A stretch of 32,000 bases of DNA from Candidatus Saccharimonadota bacterium (GCA_042852035.1 BAAFHK010000001.1:420001-452000), one strand, 5' to 3'. Counted from the stretch's first letter, positions 1-32,000 are shown. The notes: generated by a model not told the origin, from the letters alone. Made by a program: numbers and translations.

Positions 1-95
1 AACAAGGTTTCACAAAAAGAAGAGGAAATACTCGAGTGCTAATTATAGAATAATAAATTGCAACTTTTAATTGATTCTGATACTGTATATGTATC

Positions 96-1574
96 ATGAG
101 TCTTGTCTGACAACTTCATCCACATTACGGAAAAAATGATATCGTTTGAGTTCATCGAGATACCGATCTTGTGCTTGCTTTATTTCGCGAACACCCAGAA
201 GTAAGTCAATTTAGAGATAAAGTTGTATGAATATTAGCACAAAATCCAGAAAAATGAACTCACTTGCGCAATAGGCTCCAAGAAGCATATGGCGATATGG
301 GAAAGCCATCAATACAAGAAATAAGCGATATTGATGCCCATAACCTTTCTTGAGTTGATAAATTACATTTTACCTATCAAAATCTTTTAGCATTTCGCTA
401 CTTCGCACAAAGATATCCAGTAGCTGCAACTGAAATATTTCTACGAAATATAAAAGAAATTCTCACAGAATATTGACTGAATGAAGCTAAAATAGTATCT
501 ATCTGACAAAGTGTTTGAGAGGTAACCTGAGAAGACTTTTGATGAACACTAGAAAATCTTAAAACCCATGTTGAGAGAATTGCTTTTCTTGAATGATGTA
601 TTGAAAGGGGGATATTTCTCAGTGAGATTATTGAGCATGCACAATACCAGAGGGATAAACTTAAAAAAGAACGTGAAGCCTCTTTTGAATACTGGGATTA
701 CAATAATATTGTAGTTCTCGCTCAAACACGAAAAAGGTGACTTAATAGAGGTAATGACTGAGGGAAATCATTCTCGCTTTCATGATGATCAGGGAATGCA
801 TTAACACAACTCAGTATAATCTCTAAATATATAGAAAGTGGATGACATATACGATCCATATCATGAACAAGTCTTTGATCTACTATAGCTGTTTTAGTGG
901 GTAGTATTTGAGATAATCGACAAAAAATGGAGCAACTTATGCAAGATATCCAATCTATGAATGAGCTCTGAGAAATTCCAAAAGATCTGAGAAGCTCAAA
1001 GAATCAAAAGGCATTTTTATCGACACTTAAAAGACTTCTCTTGAGATATTGAATCAATGATAAAACAAGGTTTTCGGATCTAAAAATTCCGGTAGTTATA
1101 AATGCCTGAAGACAATCAGGAAACCTAAGTGAACAAGAGATAGTTCTTTGATGAAATGAGCTTGTTATAGATTCTATAATGGCTTCTATGAATGTTCCAA
1201 TTGGATCAAAGAATATTGGAAAGTTTTGATGAACCAAAGTTCATTGAGTACCAATGATTGATTATGCTGCAAATGAACGCTGAAATCCTACCCACTGGCT
1301 TGAGCTTTTAGGAGAAGCACAAAAAAATATAGTTGCCATCGATGTGGGATACTCATCAGAAAGAGGATGAAGCCCTCTGGTAAGAAGATTATTCCAAAGA
1401 GCGACTATAAGGGATTTTTATGCAAAAATGCGCATAGCTACGAATGGAGGAATAGTAATAGACGCACCACTAGAATCTAAAGAATGATATTTATTCCCTC
1501 CTTGAGCTATTGAGAGGTTTTATAAGATTGGGGAAGAGCTCTATAAAAAATTTTTTAACGAGCAAGTCGAATAA
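96..1574 (+). CDS. patatin-like phospholipase with ~230-aa N-terminal extension (492 aa, table 25)
   Basis: One continuous frame only if TGA=Gly. The C-terminal half carries LSGGSGNAL (Gly-rich oxyanion loop), ISGTSLGS (GxSxG nucleophile elbow) and MIDYAANERGNP (Asp-dyad region). Ends TAA TAA. Confidence 0.6.
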
Positions 1575-2865
1575 TAAATCTCGCTCCTTGGGGGTGATTT
1601 TTTTCAACTTCAAGTCCTCATCGATGAAGACGAGCAATTCGATCAACAATCGATAGTCCTATACCCATGCTTTTATCTGTTTGATTTCTTCCTTTATCAA
1701 CACGATAAAATTTTTCTTTTACAAACTCAAGTTCACTATCTGGTATTCCAATTCCATTATCCTCAAAGATAAATATATATTCCTTTTGTTCTTTAAAATA
1801 TTTAATTCTGAGTTCTGTTGACTCACCAGAGTACTTTATAAAGTTTGAAATCATGTTATGTAAAATCTGTACATACATTCATTTATCCATACTTGTCATA
1901 GTATCTTCAGGGAAATGAAGTGAGATTTTCTGATGATTTTTATCAAGCTGTGGACGGTACTCTAGAATAATGGATTCCGATATTTTTTTAATAGAAAAGC
2001 GCTCCACTTTAACCGAATCAAAAACATCATGCGTCAATGACTCATAATCCATAATTCTTCATGTTATATGCGCTAAACGTTCTAGCTCCGATTGGAGAAG
2101 ATTCGCCGTTTTTGCATCAAGTTCCATTGCACCATCTTCAATAGCTTCTAGATAACATTTTACTGCTGTAATTGGTGTTCGTATTTCGTGGGAGAGATCT
2201 GAGAGAAAATCAGAGCGTATTTTTTCTTGGATTGAAAGGGATTTATGGAGATTATTAATAGTTCAAATAAGTGGACTAAACTCATTATTTGAAACATACC
2301 TAATGCTCGCATAATGCCTTCTATCGATAATATTTTGTAGGGTATTGGTTACAAGTATTATAGGCCTAAAAAGGGAGCGAATCCAAAGGGAGTAGCCTAA
2401 AAGAATAAACAAAAGCCAAGCAATATTCACAAGGACAATGTCACGAAGAATGTTTCTTACAAATTTTCATTCAATAGTTCATTCTGAAAATGCTGAAAGT
2501 CGAAATGAGGGAACTATGTTTTTTTGCCCTTGAATGAGAGGAAGCGATATCATGGAACCTCAAGTTGCATTTGAGTTCGACATGTAAAGCTCTGGATTTT
2601 CTGAAATATTTTCAAGGGAAGTTGAAAGATTTGAAAGCTCGGAAAGAATAGCAATATATTCAGCCTGATCATCCTTATTAAGCTTTCCGATTTGCAAAAG
2701 CGCTTGGATTCTATTTGGATCAGGAGACACATCAGTCTTGGCAAGCTCTTCAATGTATTCAGAAAAGTACTTATCAGAAAATATTTGAAACGCTCAAATA
2801 TTCACTACAGCTGTAAAAATCAGAAATACTCAAGTAATTATGGGAATTGAATAGGAAAGTCGCAA
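1555..2865 (-). CDS. sensor histidine kinase (HisKA + HATPase_c), N-terminal TM segments
   Basis: H-box FLSDLSHELRTPITAV. ATPase region ILHNMISNFIKYS ... FEDNGIGIP ... GIGLSIVDRIARLHRGGLEVEKNHPQGARFIIRL. Several in-frame TGA codons. The 3' end overlaps the patatin gene convergently by 20 nt. Start is uncertain (TTG at 2865 or a nearby ATT; no in-frame ATG near the upstream TAA). Confidence 0.8.
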
Positions 2866-3034
2866 AACTAAAATTTAGAGATAGAGTGGTATTTTAGAAA
2901 TCCATAATAAGCAGTCTTAATCATTTCGCAAATATTGAAAGAGATTTTTTTGTGATTTTAAGGCTTCCTTTTGTATTTTATTTACTTTTCATTATACTTC
3001 TGAACATTCTTCATTTTAGTTTCAATAAATAAAT

Positions 3035-4498
3035 ATGGTTCGAACTCGTTTAGCACCTTCACCTACAGGATATCTCCACATATGATCGCTTCGTACAGCA
3101 CTTTATTGCTATCTCTGGGCAAAAAAGAACCACTGACAATACATTGTTCGCATTGAAGATACTGATAGAACGCGACTTGTTGAAGGAGCGGTTGAGGCAA
3201 TATTAGAAACACATCATGAGCTTTGAATTATGCCAGATGAATGACCCCATCATGATGGTTGATATTGACCGTATACACAGAGTGAAAGACTGAAGGAATA
3301 TGCTCCACGCCTACATAAACTTTGCGATGATTGAACTGCTTACTACTGTTTTTGTTCAAGTGAAAGACTTGATGCCCTTAAAAAGGAGCAGGAAGAATTA
3401 AAGCTTCCTCCAAAATATGATGGCCATTGTCGTCATATTCCCCTTGAAGAAGCAAGAGAAAGAATTGAAAATGGAGAAAAATTTACGATTCGTCTCAAGG
3501 TACCAAAAGGAGAAACTATAATCTTTCAAGACCTTATTCGTGGAAGGATTGAGTTTAAAACAAGCGAAATTGACGACCAGGTTCTTTTGAAATCTGATGG
3601 CGAATTCCCAACATACCACGGTGCAATTGTCATAGATGACCACCTTATGGGAATTACTCATGTTATGCGATGAGAGGAATGGATTAGTTCTATACCAAAA
3701 CAGGTACTTACTGCAAGAGCACTCGGTATCGAACTTCCTCTTTATGCTCATCTTCCTAATGTACTTTGAGCGGATGGAAAAAAACTTTCAAAACGCACTG
3801 GTGATGTTTCTGTGAGTGAATATCTAAAAAAATGATATTTTCCCGAAGCACTTCTAAATTTTCTTGCACTTCTAGGATGGCATCCAAAACAAGACGAGGA
3901 AATTATGAGTATGCAAACAATGATAGAGAAATTTGAAATTACCGATATCCACAAATCATGAGCAATACTTGATCCTGTAAAGCTTGACTGGATGAATGGT
4001 GAATACATCAAAAAAATGGACATTGGAGAACTTCATGAACGATTAGCATCATATTTAAAGCGATACGAACCAGAATTTTATGAATGAGTCTTCTCTCAAC
4101 AAGATTTCGATTACAATGCTCGAATTATACGAGAAGTTCAAGGTCGAATGAAGAAACTTGATGAATTTCGACAACTTACTCTATTTATTTATGGGGGAGC
4201 TGAGATTAAAAAGAATCTTCTCGTAAATCCAAAAATGAAAATAGAATCAGAAAAGGAGTGAATCGAGGCGCTTCAATTTGTTCTTCCTTTGCTAGAGAAT
4301 GCTGATTTTTCATCTCTTGATAGCCTCAAATGACCTATACTTGAATCAATTGCTCAAAGCTGAAAAAAGAATGGTCAAATTCTTTGGCCACTCCGAGTAG
4401 CCCTCTCTGGTGAAGAATTTTCACCGTGAGCATTTGAACTTGCATTTATCCTAGGAAAAGAAAAATGTATCGAGAGAATTTGAAGGTACTTTGTATAA
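3035..4498 (+). CDS. gltX: glutamyl-tRNA synthetase (487 aa)
   Basis: [24 protein letters not shown], with the HIGH-motif Gly encoded by TGA at 3083-3085. Also [11 protein letters not shown] and a KLSKR (KMSKS-type) loop. Many further TGA codons are in frame. Confidence 0.95.
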
Positions 4499-4536: not shown

Positions 4537-4872
4537 ATGAATTACGCAATTTTAAAAACAATCATAGAAACCTCACTAACCCAATACGTCTGTCAAAATT
4601 GTTCCATGAAATCTGATGAAAACTCATTTAATCTTACCAAAGTGAGCGAGGGGTCTGTTGATTTTCTCGTAACATGCCCTCATTGTCAGTTTGAAACACA
4701 TATGCATGCTGAAGTTGGGTCAGCTCAGTTAAATAATCAGATTCCACAAAATGGTACAACAAACAACATCGTTCCTGTAATTAAAAATAAAAACTCAATA
4801 CAGGAAAGCGATATTACGGAACTTGAAAAAAGTATCATGGATAGTAGCTCAATTGAAGATCTTTTAAAATAA
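4537..4872 (+). CDS. small zinc-ribbon protein (CxxC...CxxC), 111 aa
   Basis: ORF with CQNC ... CPHC pairs. I use the ATG at 4537 because the longer track ORF start at 4465 lies inside gltX. Confidence 0.5.
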   Translation: MNYAILKTIIETSLTQYVCQNCSMKSDENSFNLTKVSEGSVDFLVTCPHCQFETHMHAEVGSAQLNNQIPQNGTTNNIVPVIKNKNSIQESDITELEKSIMDSSSIEDLLK

Positions 4873-6397: not shown

Positions 6398-7915
6398 ATG
6401 ATAAACTCTATTAATACATTTCTCACTCCTGTCGAGAAATTTCTAAAACAGAAGAGTAAATATATCTCCTATTTTCTGATTTTTCTTTCGATATTTGCAT
6501 TGGTTTTTTATATAATTCCTTTTATTTCTATAAGCAATTGAAATATTGGATTCACAAATAGCAGTTCGATAGCCTGAATGCAGAAAGAAAGCTGAGAACA
6601 GGCCCTAAATGTTCTTTGGATTATACTTTGGATTCCAATTTTTGCTCGTGTTCTCCAAATTCGAGTAACACAAAATCTTATGCCTCTAAGAAAAGAGCTT
6701 GGGATTCTCATGTGAGTTCTTGCTTTTATTCATGGATGAATGTATATTTTTCCATACTCATCTGAATTGGGAACGAAAGGATTTTGGATAACTGATGGAT
6801 TTTTTTCCTATCTTGCATTTGGCTTCTTTGCATTCATACTTACCATACCGCTTCTACTTACCTCTAATAATTGGGCAATGAGACTCCTCTGAAGGAAGTG
6901 GAAACTATTGCATAGGGCGGTATATTTTATTCTCATATTCACAATAGCACATGTCGTACTCTTAAAATGGTACCTTCACCTTGAGATAATACCTGTCATA
7001 CTCTTATTCGCTTATATGATCGGGAAATATTTTGAATGGTCGAGCAAAACTATCTGAGGAAAACAAGAAAAATGAATTATAAATGCCTGACAAAAATGGC
7101 TCTGTGTCCCATGTTGATATATTTATGATCCTTCAATTTGAGATATTGATAGTGGAATTAAGCCTGGAACTGAATTTGTAGATATTCCTGACGATTGGAG
7201 TTGTCCATTGTGTTGAGTTAAAAAATCTGATTTTATACCATATAATGAAGACGAAGAAGAGGCAACAAGTATTGCTCTCGTAAAAGAAAAAAAGATGCTA
7301 AATGCCACTACCGTTGAACTTACCATAGAAACCGAGGAGAATCACTCAAGCAAAGCATGACAGTTTATGAGTTTCCTTTGGAAAGATAAGGAGGGTCAAT
7401 TTCCTCGATCATACTCAATTGCTCACCACGAATGAAATCAATTTACATTTCTTATAAAACTTTCTCTCGAATGACGATGAGCAAAATGCATTAGAGATTG
7501 TGAAGAGTGAGACATTGTTCGTATTCGCAACATTGCATGATGATTCATCCTCCAGGATACATCTCTTGAGAAAATTTTTATTGCCACTGGCACATGACTC
7601 GCTCCCATCTATCGAATGATTCAAGAAGACAATAAACGAGCAACTCCCTCAAAAAAAACCCTGTATTTTAGTGTCTCCACAAAAGACGAACTCTTTTATC
7701 AATCTCAATTAGAAGCTATAGAAAATCTTAATCTCAATATTCATATTACCCGAGAAAAGATTGATGGATTTCATTTCTCAAGAGTAAATGTTGAATCAAT
7801 AGATGCACCAAAAGAAACGGAATGGTATCTTTGCGGAAATCCAAAAATGGTATCTGAAACTCGAACTACACTCCTGAGCAAATGATATAAAAATGTTTAC
7901 TCAGAAGAATTCTAG
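6398..7915 (+). CDS. fusion protein: ferric-reductase/YedZ-like 6-TM domain + rubredoxin + FNR-like FAD/NAD(P) oxidoreductase (505 aa)
   Basis: TM region has His in FIHGG and an HRAVYF..IAHV pair. Rubredoxin is [47 protein letters not shown]. FNR motifs are RSYSIA (RxYS FAD site), FIATGTGLAP and WYLCGNPKMV. The linker stays open only through three TGA=Gly codons. Confidence 0.75.
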
Positions 7916-9135: not shown

Positions 9136-10305
9136 ATGACTTCTACTATAGTTTCTAATATTTTCAATAATCTACTCACACTCAACGAAAAAACTCTTGA
9201 TGCATTTTTTGATGAGGTGAAGACAGTTTTTAAAGAACTCAAAAAGGAAGGAGATATTGATAACCTTAAGGTTCTACGAAATCAACTACAGTCAATCCGT
9301 GAAAATCAAGGAAATGAAGTAAGAAAAAAAAGTAAGGATGAATATCGTAGATTAGTTGATATTATTGATGATATAGACGAGATAATTGCTGATTTTGCTA
9401 AAGAAGCAAAAAAGAAAATTATTCTTGTTGATGTTGTAAAAAAATATAAGAAGAAGATGAAGCCCCTTAAAGAGCTTCCTGAGGAAAAAAGAAAAACCCA
9501 TCAACTCGTTGCTGCGAGAAAGACAGACATAGACTATGAAGCTGAGATGCTCATGCTCCAGCTTGAACTTACAAAGCTTCAGCGCTATATTAATGAAAGC
9601 GGACAAAAAGTTCTCATCATCTTTGAATGAAGAGATGCTGCAGGGAAGGGGGGGAATATAAAGCGATTTATGGAGTCTCTCAATCCTCGTACCGCAAAAG
9701 TTGTGGCACTCATGAAACCATCCGAAACTGAAAAATGACAATGGTATTTTCAGAGATATATTGAACACCTTCCAAATGCTTGAGAGATGGTTTTCTTTGA
9801 TAGATCTTGGTATAATCGGGCATGAGTAGAACCAGTAATGTGATTCGTAACACAGGCTGACTATGAGAAATTCATGAAGGATGTACCTGAACTTGAGAAA
9901 ATGCTCGTAAAATCTGCTGGAATTAAAATTATCAAATTTTATTTTTCCGTATCAAAAGCAGAGCAAGCTGCACGTTTTGAAGAAAGAAGAACAAATCCCC
10001 TCAAACAATTTAAGCTTTCTCCTATAGATCAATTCTCTCAGCAACTATGGGACAGATATACTCTCGCAGAGTATGAAAATTTTACTCGAACTCATACCGA
10101 TTGGGCTCCTTGGGTTATAGTTAATAGCGATAATAAAGAAGCGTCTCGAATCAATGCCATAAAGTATGTTCTTAATCAATTCGATTATCCAGGCAAAGTT
10201 CGAAGTGAAAAATTAAAACTTGATGAATCAATTATACGGTCAGGAAAGGATAAGGCTCGGATACTCAAAGATGAGATAGCAGGGAAGAAGTGACTCTTTG
10301 AATAA
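9136..10305 (+). CDS. ppk2: polyphosphate kinase 2 with ~140-aa charged N-terminal extension (389 aa)
   Basis: [19 protein letters not shown] (Walker A; the Gly after FE is TGA at 9628-9630), [18 protein letters not shown], lid and C-terminal PPK2 regions. The two track ORFs 9136-9630 and 9874-10293 join in frame. Confidence 0.9.
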
Positions 10306-12241: not shown

Positions 12242-13187
12242 AATTGATGACATTCTCGAAAGCTGAGATGGAAAAGAAAATGTAGCAGCCCAAAAGCTGA
12301 TACATTTTATGAGAAAATACCATCCCAAGATACAAATTGATCGCAAATTTCAAAGAGATCTCAAATATCAGCTATTTTCAAAAACCAAGAAATCACCATT
12401 TGCCTGGTACTATAAACTTTCCTATTTTACTGTATTAGCGACATCTTTTATAGTTATTTTTAGCGGAATATGAAAGTATTTCTGGAATCAGAATACATAC
12501 ATTTCAAGTACTTTAAAAAATGAGTGAATAAATGATGCTTGAAGCATAGCTGAATCTCAGATAGAAACAAACACTCATATGAGCATGAAATCACTCCTGA
12601 TGGAAAAAAGCGTTAGTAACGATGCGATACCCACATCCAATGAACAATGAATACCAAATAATACAGAATCTCCCTCACCAAAAATTGCGACACAAACTAA
12701 TACAAAATCAGAAGACTTGGATCTCAAGAATCTTAATGATGAAATTATTGATATAGCAAACAACATTGATTCTATTTCCGATGCGCCTCAGGAAAATCTG
12801 TGAATCTCCTCACCAGAACCATGAATCTGATGAGTCCCCGCCAGAATGATGGTAAGCGCAGTATCTGAAGCTCAACCTATGAGACCTGAGGTATCTATTA
12901 ACTACCCAAATCAACTCATTATATATAAAAAATCTAGTGCCTGGCAGGATCATGAGATACAATCTCGAAGTGGAAGCGGTGTAGTAAAGGTTCTTGAAAG
13001 AACCATCACAAAATACGATTTATCCTCTCAGACACTTGACCTAGTAGCGGGAACTGAATTTATAGAATATAAAACTGCAAAAAAAGAATGAGATGTAAAT
13101 TTTTATCTCATTCCATCTCTCGGATACAAAAACAATAAGTGAGATACTCTATTTACTCCAATTATTGATTGATACAATCTCTATTAG
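12228..13187 (+). CDS. putative anti-sigma factor / single-pass membrane protein (319 aa)
   Basis: Overlaps the sigma gene stop by 14 nt. One TM helix (YYKLSYFTVLATSFIVIFSGI). The function call rests on position only. Confidence 0.4.
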
Positions 13188-13633
13188 GCGAGAAACTTTT
13201 CCGTGATGATTCTTATATTCGATGATGATGTTTCTTCTTTTGCATCAAGCATCATAACTTCATCGAGAGTAAACCATGAAGCATCACCAATATTTGATTC
13301 ATCATCGATCAGGGCTTTATAGTGAATAAGGAGGACTTGTTCTTCCTCTTCACGAAGATCAACTTCATCCATAAGCAATACGGGATGTTCTTCATCCAGC
13401 AGAGTTATTGTATTATTTCCGACTACTTCTTGACCATGATGAAGAGCGCTTTCACGAAATGTCATATGATCGTTGTATCTCCCGCCAATAAACTGCCACT
13501 TTCCAGTAGCGTGGGATTGATGAAGTAGTACTTTTTCCTTATTTTTTGAAATTACAACAGGTCAAGTAGCTATAGTAAAAGGGAATGTATTATGCGAAAA
13601 ATCAGAGCAAGGAAGGCAATAAAAAGTTGTCAT
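13184..13633 (-). CDS. Nudix-fold protein with degenerate Nudix box (149 aa)
   Basis: VVISKNKEKVLLHQSHATGKWQFIGGRYNDHMTFRESALHHGQEVVG resembles GX5EX7REUXEEXGU but lacks the canonical Glu residues. The track ORF extends upstream through a TGA. Confidence 0.45.
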
Positions 13634-13693: not shown

Positions 13694-13951
13694 TTACAAA
13701 ACAATACCTCTCTGAATCCTCTTTGATTCCTCAATAATTGCGCGAAATATATCTCTAATTTCAAAATCTACCTTTTCATCATAAGAACTGAGAATCTCCT
13801 CTTCACGTCTAGAATCAAATATTTGCATACTATTCGCTTTTTTATAAAGAGCTACTTCCTTGGAAAGCTCCATTCTTCGAGAAAGAAGTTCTAGGATTTT
13901 TTCATCAATTGCAGATATTTCTTTACGAAGATCTATAAGATTATTTGTCAT
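13694..13951 (-). CDS. chorismate mutase, AroQ class (85 aa)
   Basis: LIDLRKEISAIDEKILELLSRRMELSKEVALYKKANSMQIFDSRREEEIL is a typical CM_2 helix pattern. I prefer the ATG at 13951 to the TTG at 13957 used by the track. Confidence 0.75.
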   Translation of the reverse strand: MTNNLIDLRKEISAIDEKILELLSRRMELSKEVALYKKANSMQIFDSRREEEILSSYDEKVDFEIRDIFRAIIEESKRIQRGIVL

Positions 13952-14187: not shown

Positions 14188-15015
14188 ATGAGAAACCTTC
14201 GTTCTATTCTTGCTGCTGTTGTTAGTCTTTTTGGGCTTAGTTTATCTATGAGTGTTTTGGCACATGATGAATATCGCTATGAGAATTATTATAGCAACGC
14301 CTATAATTCTCGCCTTGCTACTGAATGTGATTTTTCAAGCATTAGTGTTGGTGTAGGAAATGTAAGAAATGGTGTCGTCGTAACAATTGATTCTCTTGAT
14401 GAGTGAGTAACTCGATGCATAAAGAACTCATCTTGGATTTCCTATTTTAGTAGCTTTGGGAATTCTGTAAGCATAGAAATAAATAGTACCACTCTCTGAG
14501 TTCAGATTATTGCAACAAGTACAAGTAACGAAGTGGCTACAAATCTAAAAAATACTCAATGGTCTCGACTTCTTTCTGCAAGATCTCCTACCTATCTCTC
14601 TTCACAATACAGTAATCGTATTACTCGAACACTTCCAAGGTACACCACTTATAGAAGAGAATATTCAAACTCGTCATACCAACAACCATACTATCAATAC
14701 CAGCAATATCCTCAATATACTTATAATCCTCAAGCTCGATCATATACAGCAGGGAGCTCACTTTTCAATACTTACCAAATGTATCGAACGATGACCTATC
14801 AAGCAAATGGCGTAAAAATCACCTTAAGTAGTCCAGACTACAACACATCACGAGCATTGCAATCATATTATTACACTGGTCTCTTCCGTGATCTTACAGG
14901 AATTTCGGTGAGCGTCGTAAATATTTCTGGATGAGTTGAGCTAACTGTCACTTCTGGAAATAGCAGTACTGTTGAGCAGATACAAAGAATAGGATATGCG
15001 CTTACCTATAACTAG
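14188..15015 (+). CDS. secreted protein with Tyr/Gln-rich low-complexity linker (275 aa)
   Basis: Signal peptide MRNLRSILAAVVSLFGLSLSMSVLA. Central stretch YSNSSYQQPYYQYQQYPQYTYNPQARSY. The two track ORFs (14131-14406, 14533-14934) join through TGA codons. Confidence 0.6.
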
Positions 15016-15801: not shown

Positions 15802-15854
15802 TTCAAATCAAACAAACCAGCAATATTCTTTTAATTTTTAACTTTTTATAACTT

Positions 15855-16578: not shown

Positions 16579-16619
16579 AAGTGACCTACCCATATTTTAT
16601 TTTAATAATCTTTAAACCA

Positions 16620-16892
16620 ATGAACAATACAAAGTCCAAGAGATCCCCAGCATGAAAACAATTAACCAATGATTCTTTTCCTTGAAGAAGTCCAGAGTCA
16701 GATAGTATTTTCTTAAGATTATCAAGACAGAAACCTGAAGAATTCCATTTTTTAGATAAGATACTTGGTGAATGCTTAGAGAAGACTTTCCAGATTTTAC
16801 CAGCAGATGATGTTCCTGCAAATATTAAGAAGTTCCAAATGCTTGAAGCTATTGATAATCTAGTAATACAACTTCTCCTTCATAACAAATAG
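16620..16892 (+). CDS. hypothetical protein (90 aa)
   Basis: Plus-strand frame open with two TGA=Gly codons. Its composition is protein-like (PEEFHFLDKILGECLEKTFQILPADDVPANIKKFQMLEAIDNL). It is co-oriented with its neighbours and competes with the hydrophobic minus-strand track ORF 16612-16821. Confidence 0.4.
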
Positions 16893-16982
16893 AATTCTCA
16901 TTTCATAATTCTTATTAAAAACCAGTTTAATATCTAACTATTTATGCAGAAGGCAGTATTCCTGAGATGTTCCAATAACAAA

Positions 16983-17099
16983 AGTAATAAAAGTCACCAT
17001 GAATCATAACAATCATTAAAAATTGCAAGGTAGTACACAGTCTCCACCTTGCAATTTTTGTGTTTATGATTGTTGGAAGCGGAGGTGCTTTTTATTACT
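16983..17099 (+). promoter_or_regulatory. extended nested hairpin with conserved loop AGTACACAGTCTCC (copy 1)
   Basis: Outer stem agtaataaaa/ttttattact, middle stem aacaatcat/atgattgtt, inner perfect 14-bp stem aaaaattgcaaggt/accttgcaattttt (17018-17031 / 17046-17059). The 14-nt loop is at 17032-17045. A T-run follows the inner stem. The element ends 12 nt before the ATG at 17112. Confidence 0.5.
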
Positions 17100-17111
17100 A
17101 ACTTTTCTTAT

Positions 17112-17483
17112 ATGAAAGCATCATCTCCTCAATACCTGTCTAACTACTATAAATACGTTCGTTCTCATATCAATCAGACAATGCTTGTCGAAGAATTATT
17201 AAAGAAATCTATCATCTCTTATGACGATATAGAATGAATCTATGACGAAGAAACTGAAGAATATAGGGAAGTGTATCAATGGCTTATATTCAATAATTTT
17301 GATTCAAGAGATTATGAAAAACTCATTGCCAATAATATCCCTGTAATTCAATCTGATTATGAAACTTGGGTTGGTATTACTTCATTCTGAAGTCACTATA
17401 ACCTCTACGTATATCCTGAGCTTATCAATGCACTCTTTGATCTCAATATTTCTTATGAAGATATTCAGAATATCTCTCCGTAA
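17112..17483 (+). CDS. small acidic hypothetical protein, family B copy 2 (123 aa)
   Basis: YQWLIFNNFDSRDYEKLIANNIPVIQSDYETWVGITSFGSHYNLYVYPELINALFDLN is collinear with copy 1. Confidence 0.6.
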
Positions 17484-18128: not shown

Positions 18129-18203
18129 TGGCAGCTCTGCTCAGAATCGAACTGAGGTCAACGGCTTTGGAGACCGCTACACTAACCGCTGTGCTACAGA
18201 GCT
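18129..18203 (-). tRNA. trnW: tRNA-Trp (anticodon CCA), CCA-3' encoded, 75 nt
   Basis: Hand-folded cloverleaf: acceptor AGCTCTG/CAGAGCT, D arm GCAC-AGCGGTTA-GTGT, anticodon arm GCGGT-CTCCAAA-GCCGT, 4-nt variable loop, T arm CTCAG-TTCGATT-CTGAG, discriminator G + CCA. A CCA anticodon reads UGG only, so UGA is not Trp here. Confidence 0.9.
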
Positions 18204-18931: not shown

Positions 18932-19873
18932 TTATTGTATATTAAAACTTACAGAGATTCTTTTTGCAGCTTCAAAGAGTTCAGTAGCTAGTTTTTTTCT
19001 TCATCTTCATTCATCTGCCAATCAATCCTTGTGGATTTTTTCTCAGAGAAGTTTTAGGAATTCAGCAAGTTTTCAGTAATTGAGTTTTCAAATTCTCTCA
19101 CCTAGTGTAGCATTAGGAATACCTTGAATATCTGAGGTATGTTTTGGATTAAGGGGAGCTTTTAGAAATGGTTTACAGATTTCCCAAGCAGTCATGATAT
19201 GAATGGATGCTTCTTGAAGATTTTGTGATGCTTTTAGAATTAATCTATCTAATTCAGATGGATCATCTAATTCATTATGTTTCTTAGATTCAAGAGTAAG
19301 AGTCTCACTGAGTTTAGAAAGAACTGCTGCAAGGGCATCATAGTAAAGATCTCCTACCTTTTCAGCTAATTCTTCTTGATTCATTATTATTCATTCAACC
19401 TCTCATCTTTTTATATGTTTCTTAGCCTCTTCATCTAAAACAAAATGTTTTTCTAATGCTTCCTCATAGGTAAGACCTTCCCATTCCATTACTGCAAGAA
19501 CCATAGAATCCAAAAACATATCTATATCTGGATAGACCTTTCTCTCTGTTGCAATATCAATGGTAGTGTAGTGATATTTATCATCACCTACACCCATTCA
19601 TAAACTTCTCATATATTTTGCCTTCTCTGCCTTAGGGAGCACCTTCACTCATTCCTTCATTTTCTTAGCCTGTTCTTCCTGATATTTTATATAAGCTTCA
19701 GCAATATGAGTACCTTCTGAAACTAAAGTAAATACAGGAATGTTGTCTACAAAAACAGTATCTTCATACTTTCCATTTCATAAATCCTTTCTTTCTATCT
19801 TTTGATTAGAAGAAATGGTATATGTCTCAATCTGAGGATTTCAAGAATGTATAAGTGAATCAGGAGTAAGCAT
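18932..19873 (-). CDS. hypothetical protein (313 aa); joins track ORFs 19403-19597 and 19088-19384 in frame
   Basis: No TAA or TAG between the ATG at 19873 and the TAA at 18932-18934. The two track ORFs are linked by ...KKHIKR-G-EVE-G-II-MNQEE..., with the two Gly = TGA at 19403-19405 and 19391-19393. No recognisable domain. Confidence 0.55.
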
Positions 19874-19910: not shown

Positions 19911-21959
19911 TTATGGTATTTGTGAGGCAAGAATTTTATAAGTTGTTTTTCAGTCAGGTGTAGTTTGTGGCTCAATCTTCAGTATTTCAATTTTAGTTCA
20001 TGGGAGAAAGAGTGATTCCTGTGGAGTATTTGTTTTGTTTATTTTCTGAGCAAATTGAACAAAGAATGCTAAATCAGATATATCTTTTGCCTGAGTGGCA
20101 TTTATAACTGTAATTTGATAGGTTCAATTATTCCAGAATGGTTCTGTTGGAGGATTGGAAGCGGAAGTAAACCAATCAAGGGTTTTGGTATCTCATTTTT
20201 TAAGTCATCAGAAATTGTGACTGTCTCAGATAAATTGTATAGTGTGTTGTGCTTGTGGCATTTTTTCAAGTCCGGATTGAAGAAGTTTTGCCATTTCTGA
20301 ATTTCTCAAATTTCAACTTCTCATTCACATATTTAATTCTTTATTAAAGAGTCATAAAGTATACCCATATACAGCATGTGCTTCTTCTAATGTCATTCAA
20401 TGTTTTTGAGCTGTTGATTCCACAAGAGCTTTATATTCAGGATCTGTTTTCCAGTTTTTATATTTTGTAGCTATTTTTGATTCTGGAATTCATATTTCCT
20501 GAATTGCTTTGATGTAATTTTCAGGTATTCAGAGTTTTATTAGCTCTCTTATCTGTTCTCATTTTCAGAGAGTTTCAGCAACCTTGGTTTTCACTCATTC
20601 CTGAATCTGTGGAAGTGTAGATTGAACTCTTTCAGCAGTTGCTCTTACTCACTGAGCTCAAATCTCAGTAGCAGTGGTATTTTTTGTAGCAGTGGCAGCA
20701 ATTTCTTTCATTTTTACTACTACTTGCTCTACTTCATCTATAACGTCTAGATTTACTCAATTTTTGAGTCTTTCAGGAGGAGTAATTTTTCCAGATTGTT
20801 TCATCTGCTCCAAACTGGTATCATAGAGCATCTTCTTTAGCTTTTCTTCTCAGAACTTTTCTAGAGCCCAAGCTGAAACATTAGCAGAATTAGGAGCAAC
20901 GGTTCAGAACTTGGCTTTCATATCCCTCTCAAATCCTGCCTTGGCTCATGGGATAAAAAGAAGAACATAGCCTGCAATCTTGGCTGCTTCATCCCCTCAG
21001 AAATATCTGACAGCTTCATGATATGCTCATATTTTTCAGGCATCTGCTAAGATATTTACAGCTCATTTTCCTACTTTCATGAGAGTACCATTACTAGCCT
21101 CAGTCTGTACTACTTTTACTCAGGGAACAAGTACCTTAGCAAGTCTAGAAGTATTTACAGCTTCCATAGTTCCTACTGATGCCTGAATCATTCTTTCTGA
21201 TTTTATTCATTTTGAAATCAGACCTCAAACTGGTCATGATGCTGCCATCACAAGAAGGGAATCAGTTCAGAGAAGTTCATTTCCTATTTCAGAAACATAC
21301 TTCTTCCAGATTTCCTCAGCAATGTTCATCATTTCTTGTTTTGCTATTGCCTCATGTTTTGTACCTTTGAGTTTTTCATAGAGTGGTTGAGCTAGGAGTT
21401 CTCATTTTGGAATCTTTTTTCTGAGTTCTCTGGCTTTATCCAGATAAAAATCTGCCATAGCTTCATCTGGACTTGAACTCTGTGAAGTCATAAGTCTTCA
21501 TTCAGGACTATCCAGAAATGATTTCATCAGTGGATCTTTTTGTATATCTTCCCATCTTTTTCATTCTTTCAGGGCATATTCTATTCTTGGAAGTGCTATA
21601 TTTCTCATTCCCACAAGTTCAGAGTATGCTTCTACAATATCTACTTTGGCTCATGAATTAGTATTTCCATCTCATCTGATGAGAGTAGAGAATCACCAAT
21701 AGTTTTCAGGGGTTACAAAGTTGGAAAATGAATACTCTTTTTCTCTGAGTGCTTTTACTCTTTCTTGCCAATCTTTTACTTGTTTTTGGAACTCTTCTCT
21801 CATCACTGGAAGTCTCTCTGAAAGAACCACTTTCATCTGTTTATCTGTATTAGATTCTGGTGGTCTGGATTGTTCTTTCTGAGCCTCTAATTTCTTTTGT
21901 TCTTTCAGTCTTTCTTCATAGGCTCTATCCTCACTATGTGATGATGGGTTTTCTCACAT
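19911..21959 (-). CDS. large protein with C-terminal ADP-ribosyltransferase(ART)-toxin-like domain (682 aa)
   Basis: Invisible in the standard-code track (>45 in-frame TGA). The C-terminus AHAVYGYTLGLFNKELNMGMRSG ... LEKMPQAQHTIQFIGDS ... LDWFTSAS ... TPQESLFLPGTKIEILKIE follows the ART order (Y-x-YT..N..LR.G / [YF]RG strand / STS-like / catalytic Glu + L-x-PG). The usual Arg is Ile (FIG). The N-terminus is charged coiled-coil. The middle has Gly/Ala-rich hydrophobic segments. Confidence 0.6.
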
Positions 21960-22627: not shown

Positions 22628-23905
22628 CTAAAAAATAATACACTCATCATTTTCAAGATCATAGCTTACAGAGATGAGTTCTATGTTCTCATTATCTCCA
22701 TTATGATAATGAAATGATGGTATGCTAGGATTTAAGAAAGCATCTGTTCTAGGATATATGAGATAGAGTTTCTTGGAATGATATTTTCTAGCATAAGCAT
22801 AGAGCTGATACATATCCCCCTGAGAGATTCCATAGTTTCCAGCCTCATCATTTTCATTTATGAGCTTCCACTTTGTATCCATAATGATATTATCATTTTC
22901 AATGTATATATCTGGTTTGAGTTGAAACTTTGGCTTCTCTTTATGGTCTTCTATGAGGGAGTACTTTTTATCCTGAGTTTTTACTATCCATTCTGGTCTT
23001 TTTTCTTTGATTTTCTTGGCTACATAGTTCTCAAAAATCTTCTCCATAGGAAATAGAAGAGAAAAGGCTAAACTATTTCCAGCCATACTCACAATAGATT
23101 CTTCTCTCAGAAATATTCTTACCCAAGAAAGAGTAGGAACATAATAGGAGTGAAGTCTGGAAATATGAGAAGATTGTTCTATATCTTCCTCTATATTGCT
23201 TGATTTAGATATATCATTGAATGCTAGCAGGTATTCCTTTATTCTCTTTTTATTAGCATTATTCTTGCTGAGGGAATTGAGTTTTATAAGGGTGGATTTG
23301 ATGAGTCTATTTTCTGCCACATCCTCAGTAAATTCATCATATTCCACAGCAAATCTTTCTTTATGAAGAAAGTTCCTTCTGATATTTTCCATCACTTTGA
23401 GCCTGCCTTTGAGGAACTTTTCATTGGATTCTATGGTTATATAGTTCTTCTTAATTCCTCTTTTTATGAGAGTACTGAGTTCATCAAGGAAAGAGCCTAT
23501 AAATATCTCTAAAATAGGAAACTTCTGGGTTTTGAGATGAGCCTCATTAACATTCTTAAATGGACTATCTTTCAATGCTTTTAGCATTTTGAGAAATATC
23601 ATTCTTACTACTTTTTCATCTTGTTCTTTGTGAATCTTGGGAAGGATTTCAATAGTTGTGCCATCATGTGTCTGAATTACTCCTACATAATTTTGAGCTT
23701 TTATGATCTTGCCATATTTTTTATGAAAACTCATGGTAAGGATATTTTCTTCTCCATTATTTCATTCTGCTATGAATTTCTCCAAGTCTAAAAATGCTCT
23801 CTCTGAAATAAGAGCATTCTCAGAAGTTGGTTCTACTCATTCTTTGTTATAGAGGAATCCAAACTCTGGAATAGTGATATATGAGTTTGGACTAGTTATG
23901 CTCAT
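22628..23905 (-). CDS. mcrC: McrC-like endonuclease subunit of a McrBC type IV restriction system (425 aa)
   Basis: N-terminus ITIPEFGFLY...AQNYVGVIQTHDGTTIEILPKI. C-terminal nuclease core KPDIYIENDNIIMDTKWKLI...DMYQLYAY. The true ATG at 23905 lies 57 codons upstream of the track start and overlaps the mcrB stop by 14 nt. Confidence 0.85.
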
Positions 23906-26207
23906 AGATTTTTATATATGATGCCTCTGTAATATTTGGATTGAGTCTATATGTCACTTTGTCTTCATACTCTTCATTCTTTATTCCAAGAACTGAGTCT
24001 CTTTTAGAGACAATATCTTGAATAATCTTTTCCTCTCCTTCTTTCCATCATTGCTCTGTATGGTCTCAGAGGATTATCTGGATTTTCTCCCCATCTTCAT
24101 AGAAGTATTCTTGTAAAAGTGGAAGAATAGCTCTCTGGAATATTTCATTCAGCTTTTCTAGTGTTGGAGTGGTTTTGAGTGGAAGAAAAAATGCTTGTCC
24201 CAAAAGATGGTCTCTGTCATAGAGGAATTCTATTCTTTCATTGAGAGTGATAAAAAGCTTCTCTATATCAATATTGCCAACAGAGATTCCAGAGAGGACT
24301 CCACTCTGAGGGGACATCTCAACAAAACTAAATCTTCTTCTGAGTGCTATATCCATAAGAGCAATAGACCTATCTGTGGTATTCATTGTTCCTATGATAT
24401 AGAGATTGTTTGGTACTGTAAATTGTTCTCCTGAATATGGAAGCTTGGCAGTGATTGCTTCATTATTTCCATATCTCTTAGAGGTTTCAATAAGAGTAAT
24501 GAGTTCTCAGAATATCTTGGAAATATTTCCTCTATTAATCTCATCAATGATAAGAACATAGTTCTTTTTTCATTCATTCTTTATAGCTTTTGTGATATTA
24601 TTTTCCTCATCAAACTCTTTGAGTCTCTGATAAAGAGCAAAGAAATAATCAGCATTCCCATTAGCAACAGATTTTGAAGACCTTGAAGGTTTAATATCAT
24701 TTTTGGATTTTATCTTTCCAGAGATGAAATTGCTGTAATCTCTGAGAATTACCTTAGCACTTAATACCTGAAAAGTTTTTCCATTAGAAATATGGAATGA
24801 TTTTACAGAATCTCATTCCTTGGCAACATAGGCTATAATCCAACTTTCTTTTGTAACTCATTTTTCTCAGGGGAACAACTGAGGTCAGAGGGTGGAAACT
24901 CATTTATAATCCTGATATTGAGTTCAAAGTCCTGTGGTTTCACTTTCTTGAATATCATCAATATAGTCTGAATAATTTTTGAGTAACTCTTCAACTAATG
25001 ATTCATTATCTTCTGTTTGAGAGATGGAATAATTACTTTTTGCTGTCTCACAGACTTTCTTAAAAATTCAGGGAACAACTTCATATTTTACTTCCCCATT
25101 TTCTGTTTTAGCTTTGAGCCCTTCTATGAAATCCTCATAAGAAAAAGATTGGTGAAAAGTGGTAAATACCACTTGTCCTTTGGTTCTATATTCATTGAAT
25201 CTTCTGAGGAGTTCAGTTCTATCTTCCTGTTCTAATTCTTCTATACTTTTCTCTTCAATAATTGAAAGAGCATGATTAATAGAATGATATGTTTTTCCAG
25301 TTCATGGAGGTCAATAGAGTATTTGATTGAGAGGAGTATTTTTCATAGATTTTTGAGGAAGAGATATGATTTCAGGGGTAGGAGAGATTTTTTCTTGTTT
25401 TGATACTGGTTCTTTCTTCTCTTCCAGTGAATGCTGAACTACATAGGCAATTCTATCTGCTATGAGATTTTCTTGGAGGATTTCTTTCTCCTCAAGTGTG
25501 AGAAAATCAAAGTCAGGAGTATCTACTTCTACATAAGGTCTATAATCCTCAATTTCACTCTCAAACTGGTTCTTGAATTCCATATAATCTCCTGAGGCAT
25601 CTCCCATCTTGCTATAATCCATACTATGGTCTCAGAGAAATCTGAGAAAGTCATAGGCAATTCCATTAGAGATAAAGTTTTCCTTTTTGGTAAGATTGTA
25701 TATTCCTTCCAATTCAAATACTATTGAGCCTCATACATATTTGAGATCTTGATAGTCTGCTTTTTCAATTTTTTTTCATTCCTGAATTACTTTCAGAAGA
25801 TGAATATATTTCTCCAGAGAATTAGTGAAGTATCCCTTATACATATTAGACTTTGTGAGTCCAATACTAGTTGCAGAGTTTAGATGGAGAAATATATCAT
25901 TTTCTAGTGATTCTAAAATCAAAATAAGGGAAGGATTCTTTAGAAACTCTTTCATTTTGGTAGTAATATCTCTCCAATTAATCTGAGAAGCAAAGTAAAG
26001 TCCATCTACCTTTTTTTGAACTAATAGAAATTCATCAAGGATACTTTGATTATTTTTGATCTTTTCCCACTCATTCAAAATAGTAGTAACTCATTTTCTG
26101 ATATGGAGAAAGTTATCTACATTATGCTTATAAGAAACAGCCTTTGTAAATACATCACTTTGTCTCAGTATATCTTGAATTTGAGAAATCTTAACCTCTG
26201 AAATCAT
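23892..26207 (-). CDS. mcrB: McrB-like AAA+ GTPase subunit with unassigned ~290-aa N-terminal region (771 aa)
   Basis: Walker A ILYGPPGTGKT (both non-GKT Gly are TGA, at 25311-25313 and 25302-25304). Also FHQSFSYEDFIEG, Walker B [25 protein letters not shown], and IIGTMNTTDRSIALMDIALRRRFSFVEM. Track ORFs 24066-24386, 25311-25622 and 25776-26078 share this frame. Confidence 0.9.
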
Positions 26208-26856: not shown

Positions 26857-26900
26857 AGAAATAGATAAAAGCCTCAATTATGAGGCTTTTATCTATTTCT
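26857..26900. terminator. bidirectional terminator between convergent genes
   Basis: agaaatagataaaagcctca-atta-tgaggcttttatctatttct is a perfect 20-bp stem. It overlaps the TAG (26893-26895) of the minus-strand gene. Confidence 0.75.
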
Positions 26901-27918
26901 GTGAGACTTGTTCATACAGTTCTCTAGCATTAGGATACTTTGTCATTACATCTTCCATAATGGCATCTCTTAAAGTATCTTCCTGTCACTTCTTCACTAC
27001 CACAGAAGGATTAGTAGCTCAGTTTATGAGAACATAATCAGCAAAATCATTGGCAGTATTAATAATGGCAGCATTTTTATCTAACTCTGTTTCCCAGCTT
27101 GTTTCTGATGGATTGTTTATTAGTTCCAGAGGTTTTAAATAATGTTCTTTCATTGCATTATACAGATATTGCCAGTATGACTTATTTACATATTGAGAGA
27201 ATGGTTTGATGGTATCTTCTAGCTCCTTTTGTTGTTTCTTCTTCTCAGCTAATGCTTTATTTTTGATTACTTGTTTCTTTTGAATTTCAGATTTTACATC
27301 AACCTCATTAGCTTTCTTTTGGATAAAGTCTTTTAAAGTCTTCTGAGAAACTCAGTCTTTCAAAAAATCACTCTTATATCTATTTATATCTTTCATTATT
27401 CCAGTGGTATATTCTCCCAGAGTAGTGGTAGTTTGTCATTGTTTAATTTTCACTATATTCTCTTTATATTTTGTCCAAAGTTTGTCATAAAATCTGGAAG
27501 GATTTTTCACATAAGGTTCAAATTCTTTTACTATTTTCTGGTGTTCTTCATCAGCCATACCATTTACACAAACATTCTCATAATTACTTGTATAATCTCA
27601 GGTCATCTTATATTGATTACCTCATTTTGGCTGTAAACATCAATAAGGATTTGCCTTATACTGTTCATAGAGTTTGTTTTCTTTTTCTGTATATTCCTCA
27701 TCTTTTGTCATAAGTGAATTTGGATATTTCTTATAACAAGCCATTGTAAGATGCTTATCATACATCATTCCCCATGTGGCATCCCAAGTTCAAGTCTGAG
27801 TGGACTCAATTTTAGCTGCATCAGCTAAACATTGTTGAATTGCCTTGTGAGTGGAAGCAAAGGTGGAAGCTATACAAGTTCCAGAGAGAACAAGAATACA
27901 TAAAAGTTTGTACTTCAT
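26893..27918 (-). CDS. secreted protein / possible lipoprotein (341 aa)
   Basis: Signal peptide MKYKLLCILVLSGTCIAS followed by a K/E-rich mature region. Open with TGA=Gly. The standard-code track shows no ORF on this strand here. Confidence 0.6.
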
Positions 27919-29056: not shown

Positions 29057-29089
29057 AAGGGTTAGTTATTTGGAATATACCTAACCCTT
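29057..29089. terminator. hairpin in a divergent intergenic region (terminator-like on the minus strand)
   Basis: aagggttag-15 nt-ctaaccctt, with a T-rich tail on the minus strand. It sits upstream of the start of 28134-29048, so it would terminate a transcript originating in 29.1-29.4 kb. Confidence 0.4.
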
Positions 29090-29107
29090 AGAAATTATTT
29101 TAAGCAA

Positions 29108-29199
29108 AAATAAAAGGAGTGTTATATCCAAATGTATATTGCTTACATACACAATCTTTGTGCATCCAATAAAGGAGGTGATATAACACTCCTTTATTT
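29108..29199. repeat. long inverted repeat (~19 bp arms, 53-nt spacer)
   Basis: aaataaaaggagtgttatat (29108-29127) pairs with atataacactcctttattt (29181-29199). Spacer segment gcttacatacaca (29141-29153) is complementary to tgtgtatgtaagc (29246-29258). Confidence 0.6.
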
Positions 29200-29376
29200 C
29201 TAGATGCTCAAAAATGGCATTAAAAAAAGATGCAATTCTTTGAGATGTGTATGTAAGCCTTGCTATTGTAGCTGCGGTTTCATTTTTAGCAAATATTTTC
29301 TTCCTCAGGAGGAATAAAAATAGCTTCTGTTTCAAGAAAAGTCCCCATAGATAAAAAGAAATAAGAATCACAATAT

Positions 29377-29443
29377 AACTCTCTCAGATAAAAGATAAAT
29401 GTAGTACAAGTCTCCACATTTACTTTTCTTTTTTTAGAGAGTT
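29377..29443 (+). promoter_or_regulatory. extended hairpin with conserved loop AGTACAAGTCTCC (copy 2)
   Basis: Outer stem aactctct/agagagtt, middle stem aaaag/ctttt, inner stem aaatgt/acattt. The 13-nt loop is at 29403-29415. A T-rich run follows. The element ends 35 nt before the ATG at 29479. Confidence 0.5.
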
Positions 29444-29793: not shown

Positions 29794-29899
29794 AATTCTT
29801 CTTTTAACATAGGTTATCGTATAGTATTAATAAGTTTTATTTGCCAATTTATGCGAAATAAATACCATTGTGATTAATTTATTTCAAATTTGACTATCT

Positions 29900-30379
29900 A
29901 TGGAGATTACTTACGGGCTTTTAGCTATAATAATAGTTTTGTTATGATACAAGATTTACTGTGACCAATTGTCACAAAAGAAATTGAGTAAGCAAATAAA
30001 GGAGTCCGTTGAACCTAAATTTCTTGATATAGCAATCTCTCCAGAATCCCAAAAACTGATCTCTCTTGCAATCGATATATGGAGACTAGAATGAAAAATT
30101 CATAATTCATGAATATCAAAAGATTGACTTGAGGCAGAGAAGATCAAAACTAGCCTTGAGCGGTTAAAAAAATTTATGAATGACTATTGAATTGCAGTAA
30201 AAGACTTCATATGAGATAAATATGTTAATGAGATTAATTTTCTTGAGCTAAAGTGAACTGAGAATACAACAGATAAATCTAAAGATTGAATAATTAAAGA
30301 TACCATTGAGCCAGTAGTGTATGTCAATTGAACTGTTGTAAAAACAGCTAAGGTTATTGTTTATAAATTTATTGCTTAA
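29900..30379 (+). CDS. membrane-anchored GrpE-like nucleotide-exchange-factor candidate (159 aa)
   Basis: N-terminal TM helix YGLLAIIIVLLGY, a helical middle, and a C-terminal beta region GIAVKDFIGDKYVNEINFLELKG...IIKDTIEPVVYVNGTVVKTAKVIVYK. That region resembles the GrpE C-terminus pattern (G..FDP..HeA ... GY...rvlRpA.V.V). Ends 10 nt before the Hsp70 ATG. Confidence 0.4.
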
Positions 30380-30389
30380 AAAATCATAT

Positions 30390-32000
30390 ATGCCTACCAT
30401 CCAAATTTGAATTGATTTATGAACCACAAATTCTGCAATTGCAATTAATAAATCAGGAAAGACCGAAATAATTAAGAATTTTGAAAGAGATGAATTTACT
30501 CCTTCAGTCTACTGATTCGATAAAGCCAAGAATCCTCTTGTATGAAAGCGTGCTTATGAAAAGCTTTACAAATATGCTGATAGTGAGGATATTTGAAACT
30601 TCAAATCTGAGATAAAGAGACTAATGTGAACTCCTGAAATTACTTATTTTCCAAGAGTTGAAAAAAGCATGAAAGCAGAAGATATTTCTGCTGAGATATT
30701 AAAATATCTTAAAAGTACGGCACTGAAACAATATCCAGATCTTGAAACTAATTGAGTAGTTATTACAGTGCCAGCACATTTTTCAACTATAGAATCAGAA
30801 GCTACTAAGAGGGCTGGTGAACTTGCTTGATTCAAAAAAGTTGTATTATTACAAGAGCCTATTGCTGCAGCAATAGCATATGGCTTTTCTGCTGATAAAA
30901 ATGCAAACTGGCTCATATACGACCTCTGAGGCGGCACGTTTGATACAGCTATAATCCAATCCATGGATGGTTTATTAAATATTTTATCAAGCAAGGGAGA
31001 TAATTTTCTCTGATGAAAAGATTTTGATTGGGCTATTGTAGATAAGATATTTATTCCAAAAATCCTAGAAAAATTTAATTTACTAAATTTTAATAGAGGA
31101 AATGAAAAATACAGAAATGCATTTAACCTGTTAAAATGATTTGCTGAAAATGCTAAAAAAATGCTCACATATGATAATGAGGTTACTATTGAGATTGATA
31201 AAATTTGAATGGATGACAATGAAAAGGAAATTTATATGAATATAACTTTAACTCGAAAAGAATTTGAAGAGCTAATAAATCCTTTTATTAAGAAATCAAT
31301 ATCACTTGTAGAAGAAACTATTAAAGAATCATGAATTAGTAAAAATAAAATAGATAAGATTGTCCTTGTTGGATGAAGCACACAAACCCCTTATATTAAA
31401 GAAAAGTTAGAAAAAGAAATTGGCATCTCCGTGGACTCAAGTGTTGATCCTCTCACTGTGGTAGCATATGGAGCATCTGTATATGCACAAACTCAAGTTA
31501 TAGAAATAGAGAAAGATAATAAAAAAACTTATAATTCCGAGTTACATAATATAAAATTGAATTTCGAGACCGTTACTACTGAAAGTGAGGAAACTATAAG
31601 TGGTATAATTGACGGACTTGAGGAAAACAAGGAATACTATCTGCAAATTCAAAGTGAAAGTGGTTATTATTCAAGCAATAAGATCCTTATTAGAAATTGA
31701 AAATTTATTACAGATGTTCAAGTTGAATCAGGAAAAGTAAACCTTTATTGGATATATTTATTTGATTCATCATGATGAGTTTTAGAGCTATCTACAGATA
31801 GTTTCTCAATAACTCATGGATTAACGGTGGGAGCAATACCAATACCATCAAGTATTGGTGTGTCTATAGCGAGACAAAATAGCGATACACTGTCTTGGCA
31901 ATCAGAAATGTTTTGGTTCTTTGAAAAAAATTCAAAATTACCATTATCTAAGACTCATGAATTTAAAACAACGAGCACAATTAGAAAATGAAGTGCTGAA
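30390..32000 (+). CDS. Hsp70-family ATPase, non-canonical C-terminal region; 3' end beyond the window
   Basis: IQIGIDLGTTNSAIA (Gly = TGA at 30408 and 30420), VVITVPAHFS, LLQEPIAAAIAYG, LIYDLGGGTFD (TGA at 30927), VLVGGSTQTPYIKEKL, DPLTVVAYGASVYA. No DVTPLSLGIE-type linker follows the NBD. Instead there is a ~110-aa unrelated segment, then ITHGLTVGAIPIPSSIGVSIA. Confidence 0.9.

Follow-up and report, generated by a model that had tools for sequence, protein, structure and literature searches.

The genetic code of SR1 and Gracilibacteria, in which UGA stands for glycine, is said to have been described by Campbell et al. and Rinke et al. in 2013. At the protein level, proteomics on a BD1-5 bacterium yielded 40 peptides with glycine at UGA and one each for four other residues, tryptophan among them (PMC4032931). 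In all BD1-5 genomes prfB was undetected while prfA was present (PMC6851277), and tRNA-Gly(UCA) co-occurs with the loss of release factor 2 (RF2); two 'Gracilibacteria' species for which Codetta inferred no meaning of UGA have no such tRNA, and RF2 is present in them (PMC8629427). A 2026 preprint groups BD1-5 together with Absconditabacterales as JAEDAM01 and treats all of them as using translation table 25. Here we examine the meaning of UGA site by site in a 32-kb stretch of DNA (GC content 32.6%), taken from a genome of 1.3 Mb and referred to as the window throughout. The window almost certainly uses this same code, with UGA as an ordinary glycine codon.

The window is part of a 750-kb contig of HHAS10, a metagenome-assembled genome (MAG) of an episymbiotic bacterium in the class JAEDAM01 of the Patescibacteria; NCBI lists the phylum as Candidatus Altimarinota, and in older naming the clade is Gracilibacteria/BD1-5. 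HHAS10 was obtained from activated sludge and comprises 1.30 Mb on 3 contigs (Fujii et al. 2022, PMC9530719). Later work classified it in the GTDB class JAEDAM01, located it among Zoogloea cells by fluorescence in situ hybridization and, using Codetta, reported UGA as reassigned to glycine in this class, HHAS10 included (Fujii et al. 2024, PMC11393006). The Altimarinota taxid 363464 appears as Gracilibacteria in Shulgina and Eddy (PMC8629427). The origin of the window follows from the proteins themselves. The table-25 translation of its glutamyl-tRNA synthetase (GluRS) is 100% identical to GAB0174544.1 of NCBI ('MAG: glutamate--tRNA ligase [Candidatus Altimarinota bacterium]'), which lies on a 750,307-bp contig. 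Of 10 of our table-25 translations, 7 are byte-identical to deposited proteins in the series HHAS10_04210 to HHAS10_04550, including those of 682, 341 and 313 amino acids (aa), and the public record therefore already uses TGA as glycine. The closest GluRS relatives of the window are Gracilibacteria MAGs.

An earlier interpretation of the same DNA, made without knowledge of its origin (the sequence-only reading), had placed the contig in the table-25 clade. The HHAS10 match, the class assignment and the GluRS relatives all bear this out, and its statement that table 25 is confined to Gracilibacteria and SR1 agrees with the literature consulted. It had, however, handled UGA as glycine as a discovery, whereas the reassignment was already published (PMC11393006) and is present in the deposited annotation. 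With the code known since 2013, proteomics from the clade since 2014 and this genome published in 2024, the assignment is neither new nor surprising, and it opens no new question. The two HHAS10 papers (PMC9530719, PMC11393006) concern the same sequence; theirs is a genome-level Codetta call, ours is evidence collected at single sites of one window.

Results

In-frame TGA codons fall on glycine positions

Every TGA was masked as X, and six proteins of the window were aligned to solved structures of standard-code organisms. Taking the best structural homolog for each site, 37 of the 65 unique TGA sites correspond to glycine, compared to a background of 7% (binomial p = 4e-26), with none on tryptophan and none on cysteine. 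Across all PDB alignments, TGA is paired with glycine in 85 of 148 aligned cells (57%), and the four codons GGA, GGC, GGG and GGT reach 55-74%. TGA is also the commonest glycine codon of the window, at 33 per 1000 codons. When only GGN codons are counted, genes with a Pfam match contain 3.3% glycine; adding TGA raises this to 6.5%, which is a normal value.

The pattern extends to catalytic motifs, given here with the TGA-encoded residue in brackets. In-frame TGA codons occupy the glycine of the GluRS HIGH motif (HI[G]S, 3083-3085), the phosphate-binding motifs of an Hsp70-like ATPase (I[G]IDL[G]TTNS, 30408-30410 and 30420-30422; DL[G]GGTFD, 30927-30929), the PPK2 motif FE[G]RDAAGKGG (9628-9630) and, on the minus strand, the McrB Walker A motif Y[G]PP[G]TGKT (25311-25313 and 25302-25304). 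Both TGAs in the C-x-Y and C-x-V segments of a rubredoxin domain align to glycines of rubredoxin structures. The sequence-only reading had named these seven coordinates and the rubredoxin pair: all seven (7/7) are in frame at the glycines it gave, and the rubredoxin pair likewise lies on glycine. Its proposed check on homolog alignments showed TGA enriched at glycine columns, with no TGA on tryptophan.

Reading TGA as a sense codon restores the genes of the window

Under the standard bacterial code (table 11), the window contains 22 open reading frames (ORFs) of at least 100 aa, which add up to 3,069 aa and of which the longest has 377 aa. With TGA as a sense codon the sum becomes 16,513 aa and the longest ORF 773 aa. 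As controls, making TAG a sense codon gave 5,269 aa, and doing so with TAA gave 8,379 aa. A set of non-overlapping genes, chosen greedily with TGA as sense, comprises 35 genes that cover 89.8% of the window, contain 318 in-frame TGA codons and end in 22 TAA and 12 TAG stops.

Pfam domains span many of these TGAs, and several are matched over the full length of the model. The families comprise the catalytic and anticodon-binding domains of GluRS, PPK2, HI0933-like, YceG, a rubredoxin, ferric-reductase and FNR-type combination in one protein, HisKA with HATPase_c, rhodanese, an ECF sigma factor, NUDIX, chorismate mutase, McrC, McrB (AAA_5) and Hsp70. The structure alignments of the GluRS and HI0933-like proteins and the Pfam match of YceG end a few residues before the TAA or TAG stop.

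These counts are close to the roughly 36 tightly packed genes expected beforehand, although the TAA and TAG ends are true by construction. Re-calling the genes, also proposed at that stage, showed that table 11 collapses and that the gain in coverage is equal for tables 4 and 25. The standard-code ORF track was rightly called an artefact, since the genes for the 682-aa and 341-aa proteins have no own-strand ORF of the minimum length listed in Table 1; the HI0933/BaiN-like gene is lost in the same way and the 313-aa gene breaks into two fragments.

Relatives use GGN or TGA at the same GluRS columns

GluRS DNA was taken from 80 species-representative genomes, and 78 loci were compared, 47 of Gracilibacteria type and 31 from other phyla. 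In-frame TGA occurs 0-13 times per locus in the former and in none of the latter. At the 17 GluRS sites that are TGA in the window, the 47 relatives carry GGN in 451 and TGA in 88 of 757 cells, and the 31 standard-code outgroups carry glycine in 242 of 447 cells (54%) as opposed to a background of 5.4%. Conversely, at GluRS columns where glycine is conserved in the outgroups, the codons of the clade are all GGN or TGA, save three strays.

Nine assemblies labelled 'uncultured Candidatus Peribacteria bacterium' (L003, L004, L009, L036, L037, L039, L040, L043 and L050) have GluRS genes with in-frame TGA and fall within the recoded clade, and their labels are therefore unreliable with regard to the genetic code.

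A UCA tRNA of glycine type occurs in relatives

Metagenome contigs were scanned with a tRNA-shaped pattern that combines a glycine acceptor end with a UCA anticodon. The scan returned 19 UCA tRNAs, 18 of which form one conserved 79-nt family (GCGGGGG...CUUCAAC...CCCCCGC-U73-CCA), the length including the encoded CCA. The nineteenth, 75 nt long, has the same glycine acceptor end and a different body. In the ARAGORN drawing, the tRNA of the clade (locus L202, 9767-9845 on the minus strand; L084-L160) has a long D-loop and an anticodon stem of 6 bp; the program labels it tRNA-SeC (selenocysteine), which is due solely to the anticodon. The contigs carrying these tRNAs have a low GC content; ORF coverage under table 11 is about 0.2-0.5 for most, and with TGA as sense it is at least 0.9 on most contigs of at least 2.9 kb.

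The UCA tRNA is directly adjoined by a tRNA-Gly (GCC or UCC) in four loci, and in several it is flanked by the genes of a 245-aa membrane protein on one side and of a basic 110-aa protein on the other. Candidatus Gracilibacteria HOT-871, whose genome is complete (CP017714.1), has the same UCA tRNA between the same two genes. The very basic 110-aa protein has 579 homologs, the named ones all from Gracilibacteria or 'Peribacteria' records; an HHAS10 member is not among the best 120 of these 579 matches.

From these relatives and the literature on the clade, we infer how UGA may be decoded. A dedicated tRNA-Gly(UCA) would read the codon, charged by glycyl-tRNA synthetase (GlyRS) through the usual glycine identity elements G1-C72, C2-G71, G3-C70 and U73. 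In HHAS10, this tRNA is expected to be close to GCGGGGGTAACATAAAAGAGTGAGTGTACTAAGGCTTCAACCCTTGGGTGTGCGAGTTCAAACCTCGTCCCCCGCTCCA and probably lies between the genes of the 245-aa membrane and 110-aa basic proteins. RF2, which would otherwise terminate at UGA, is presumably lost, as the clade literature indicates, leaving release factor 1 (RF1) to terminate at UAA and UAG. AT-biased mutation would turn GGA into TGA by a single G-to-T change, so that TGA use would go up as GC falls. The share of TGA among glycine codons in the 47 related loci ranges from 4 to 71% and is lower at higher GC (Spearman -0.40, p = 0.005), which fits such AT-biased mutation; HOT-871 uses TGA for 71% of its glycine codons and the window for 54%.

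Weighing glycine against other meanings of UGA

We are very nearly certain that the window is written in genetic code 25, with UGA as an ordinary glycine codon, UAA and UAG as the only stops and UGG alone for tryptophan. Codon meaning and gene structure can be read directly from the alignments and reading frames above. Some observations nevertheless weigh against this assignment. About 43% of the TGA sites align with residues other than glycine, although this is as expected for variable positions and GGN codons behave alike. The absence of TGA stops follows partly by construction once TGA is taken as sense. No tRNA-Gly(UCA) was found in the 32-kb window, and a scan of 49 GluRS-linked loci of relatives for UCA tRNAs returned only tRNA-Trp(CCA) and tRNA-Leu(UAA).

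The alternative that survives best, although we still hold it to be very improbable, is the following: UGA might be ambiguous or context-dependent, partly terminating, or read by near-cognate decoding without a dedicated tRNA. The HHAS10 evidence on tRNAs spans 32 kb of a 1.3-Mb genome, and the single peptides with other residues at UGA in Hanke et al., against 40 for glycine, would suit such a reading (PMC4032931). It is hard to reconcile with TGA being the top glycine codon and sitting on catalytic glycines of essential enzymes; given its frequency, partial termination at UGA would be lethal. Moreover, homology in the GluRS, HI0933-like and YceG proteins ends only a few residues short of TAA or TAG, and relatives possess a dedicated UCA tRNA.

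Tryptophan as the meaning of UGA (table 4), which Mycoplasmatales and several endosymbionts of insects use, would explain the gain in coding density equally well, and many public pipelines have translated the clade in this way: among the best 120 GluRS homologs in the protein collection, 91 carry tryptophan at columns that are otherwise glycine. The alignments point elsewhere. TGA meets tryptophan in 0 of 148 cells and at 0 of 65 unique sites, whereas TGG does so in 13 of 39 cells, and at conserved tryptophan columns of GluRS the codon of the clade is TGG in every case. The only tRNA-Trp seen has a CCA anticodon on a normal anticodon stem, and the UCA tRNA of the clade carries the glycine identity elements U73 and G1-C72, not the tryptophan-type G73 and A1-U72. 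TGA thus lies on glycine at about the rate of GGN and never on tryptophan, and conserved tryptophans are TGG; this agrees with table 25 and excludes table 4, and we regard the tryptophan reading as scarcely credible. The sequence-only reading had likewise set table 4 aside, on account of the tRNA-Trp(CCA) at 18129-18203 (minus strand), and the lack of any TGA cell on tryptophan agrees with it. Public proteins of the clade are mostly table-4 mistranslations; the homologs of the 682-aa protein in Logan, JGI and ENA, too, show W at positions that are G in the NCBI protein.

Pseudogenes, assembly or sequencing errors, or selenocysteine in a standard-code genome would account for the bare presence of in-frame TGA and nothing more, and can be dismissed, as the same genes hold 318 TGA codons yet zero in-frame TAA or TAG, the TGAs are specific to glycine columns, independent assemblies of relatives have a like pattern, and for selenocysteine there are 0 TGA sites on cysteine and no selenocysteine insertion sequence (SECIS) element detected by Rfam in the window.

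A reassignment of CGA and CGG to tryptophan, as in SR1, was also considered and rejected: CGA, a common codon here (8.5 per 1000 codons), is aligned to arginine in 16 of 31 cells. CGG is aligned to arginine in 2 of 4 cells, which are too few for a statement on CGG alone.

Features of the window

The individual genes under code 25 are compiled in Table 1.

Table 1 Features of the 32-kb window under genetic code 25, with the number of in-frame TGA codons and the supporting observations.
Feature	Position	Strand	TGA codons	Observations
Whole window, code 25 coding sequence	1..32000		318	TGA = 54% of glycine codons
gltX (glutamyl-tRNA synthetase), 487 aa	3035..4498	+	17	Full-length Pfam match, PDB alignments, 78 homologous loci; identical to GAB0174544.1
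Ferric-reductase membrane domain/rubredoxin/FNR-like fusion, 505 aa	6398..7915	+	21	Pfam; both rubredoxin C-x-x-C-G glycines are TGA
PPK2 polyphosphate kinase, 389 aa	9136..10305	+	6	Pfam, structure alignment; TGA at motif glycine 9628-9630
HI0933/BaiN-like flavoprotein, 395 aa	10319..11506	-	25	No own-strand ORF of at least 40 aa under table 11
NUDIX gene	13184-13633		1	1 of 7 glycine codons is TGA
Chorismate mutase	13694-13951		0	Pfam; sole match elsewhere a 1.9-kb Logan contig
Secreted protein	14188-15015		3	3 of 15 glycine codons are TGA
tRNA-Trp, anticodon CCA	18129..18203	-		A1-U72, G73, normal anticodon stem; ordinary, reads UGG
313-aa protein HHAS10_04440	18932..19873	-	12	Under table 11, fragments of 98 aa and 64 aa
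682-aa protein HHAS10_04450	19911..21959	-	38	No own-strand ORF of at least 60 aa under table 11
McrC, 425 aa	22628..23905	-	2	Pfam; 2 of 15 glycine codons are TGA
McrB-like AAA+ GTPase, 771 aa	23892..26207	-	17	Both Walker A glycines (25311-25313, 25302-25304) are TGA
341-aa protein HHAS10_04500	26893..27918	-	8	N-terminal signal-like segment; no own-strand ORF of at least 60 aa under table 11
Hsp70-like ATPase, truncated by the window end	30390..32000	+	19	Phosphate-1 and phosphate-2 glycines are TGA

The protein at 6398-7915 (+) unites FAD- and NAD-binding (FNR-like) parts, a rubredoxin and a membrane ferric reductase in a single chain, an unusual electron-transfer fusion. Two pairs of small acidic paralogs without a family match, at 15547-16118 (+) and 16168-17483 (+), lie just before the tRNA-Trp gene; identities are 33/83 for the 84-aa and 87-aa pair and 50/106 for the 136-aa and 123-aa pair. 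This tRNA was the sole match in an Rfam scan of the window. A repeat search found no copy of at least 13 nt of it elsewhere in the window, and an integration event at the tRNA is thus unsupported. Three ORFs on the minus strand, 4542-4838, 16586-16906 and 29081-29419, have no family match, and the products of 4542-4838 and 29081-29419 were not found in the protein collection that contains the deposited HHAS10 proteins; all three are probably spurious and not genes.

The genes at 22628-26207 (-) constitute an McrBC restriction pair. In the Hsp70-like protein, similarity to Hsp70 is confined to the nucleotide-binding domain (residues 6-379), and the remainder up to the window end does not resemble an Hsp70 substrate-binding domain. 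The protein is therefore not a canonical DnaK.

The 682-aa protein has nine homologs only. Its N-terminal region of about 470 aa is conserved among them and several of the C-termini are unrelated, as in polymorphic toxins, which the protein looks like. The AlphaFold model is poor, with a mean predicted local distance difference test (pLDDT) score of 49.5. In a Foldseek search with this model, all 47 matches with E <= 0.001 were ADP-ribosyltransferase (ART) toxins (among them Tre1, XopAI, C3, ExoS and CDTa), with target TM-scores of mostly about 0.5-0.6 against single-domain toxins. An ART domain was detected neither by Pfam (E up to 1) nor by a sequence search of the PDB. The model thus tentatively suggests, at low confidence, an ART-toxin-like fold for the C-terminal domain. 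The label 'ART-like' that the gene had received beforehand is in line with the fold search on this weak model and finds no counterpart in the Pfam and PDB sequence searches. An immunity partner could be encoded by the 313-aa gene immediately downstream, which is without a family match.

TGA share varies between neighbouring genes

Neighbouring genes differ sharply in their TGA share: 2/15 glycine codons in McrC, 1/7 in the NUDIX gene and 3/15 in the gene for the secreted protein, versus 60-90% in adjacent genes. The value for McrC is below the window mean (p = 0.003), while that for McrB is 17/44. The TGA-poor McrC, NUDIX and 14188-15015 genes may have been imported recently from organisms with the standard code. 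A more general use of the per-gene TGA share of glycine codons, as a clock or marker of such recent acquisition, appears doubtful to us. If it were valid, the marker would allow testing to what extent the changed code is a barrier to gene exchange.

Discussion

For practical purposes, gene calls and homology screens of this contig need table 25, as table 11 shreds its genes; the earlier warning that standard-code annotation and homology screens are unreliable here is thereby justified. Translation with table 4 keeps the genes long and places tryptophan on glycine positions, catalytic glycines included, a mistake that many public records contain.

Among known systems, the window corresponds most closely to NCBI table 25, the SR1 and Gracilibacteria code (Hanke et al. 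2014, PMC4032931), with which it shares UGA for glycine, UAA and UAG as stops and UGG for tryptophan. The lineages using this table likewise have small, low-GC genomes and belong to the same lineage, JAEDAM01; nothing essential differs. The TGA share of the window lies at the high end of that seen in the sampled loci of the clade. The variant of Absconditabacteria (SR1), a sister order in which CGA and CGG also encode tryptophan (Shulgina and Eddy 2021), has UGA as glycine in common with the window, and the window gives no sign of the CGA/CGG reassignment. In table 4 of Mycoplasma and Spiroplasma, the same codon was captured, probably with a part played by RF2 loss, and there too the genomes are reduced and rich in AT. 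The amino acid in table 4, however, is tryptophan, whereas in the clade of the window it is glycine and the decoding tRNA is of glycine identity.

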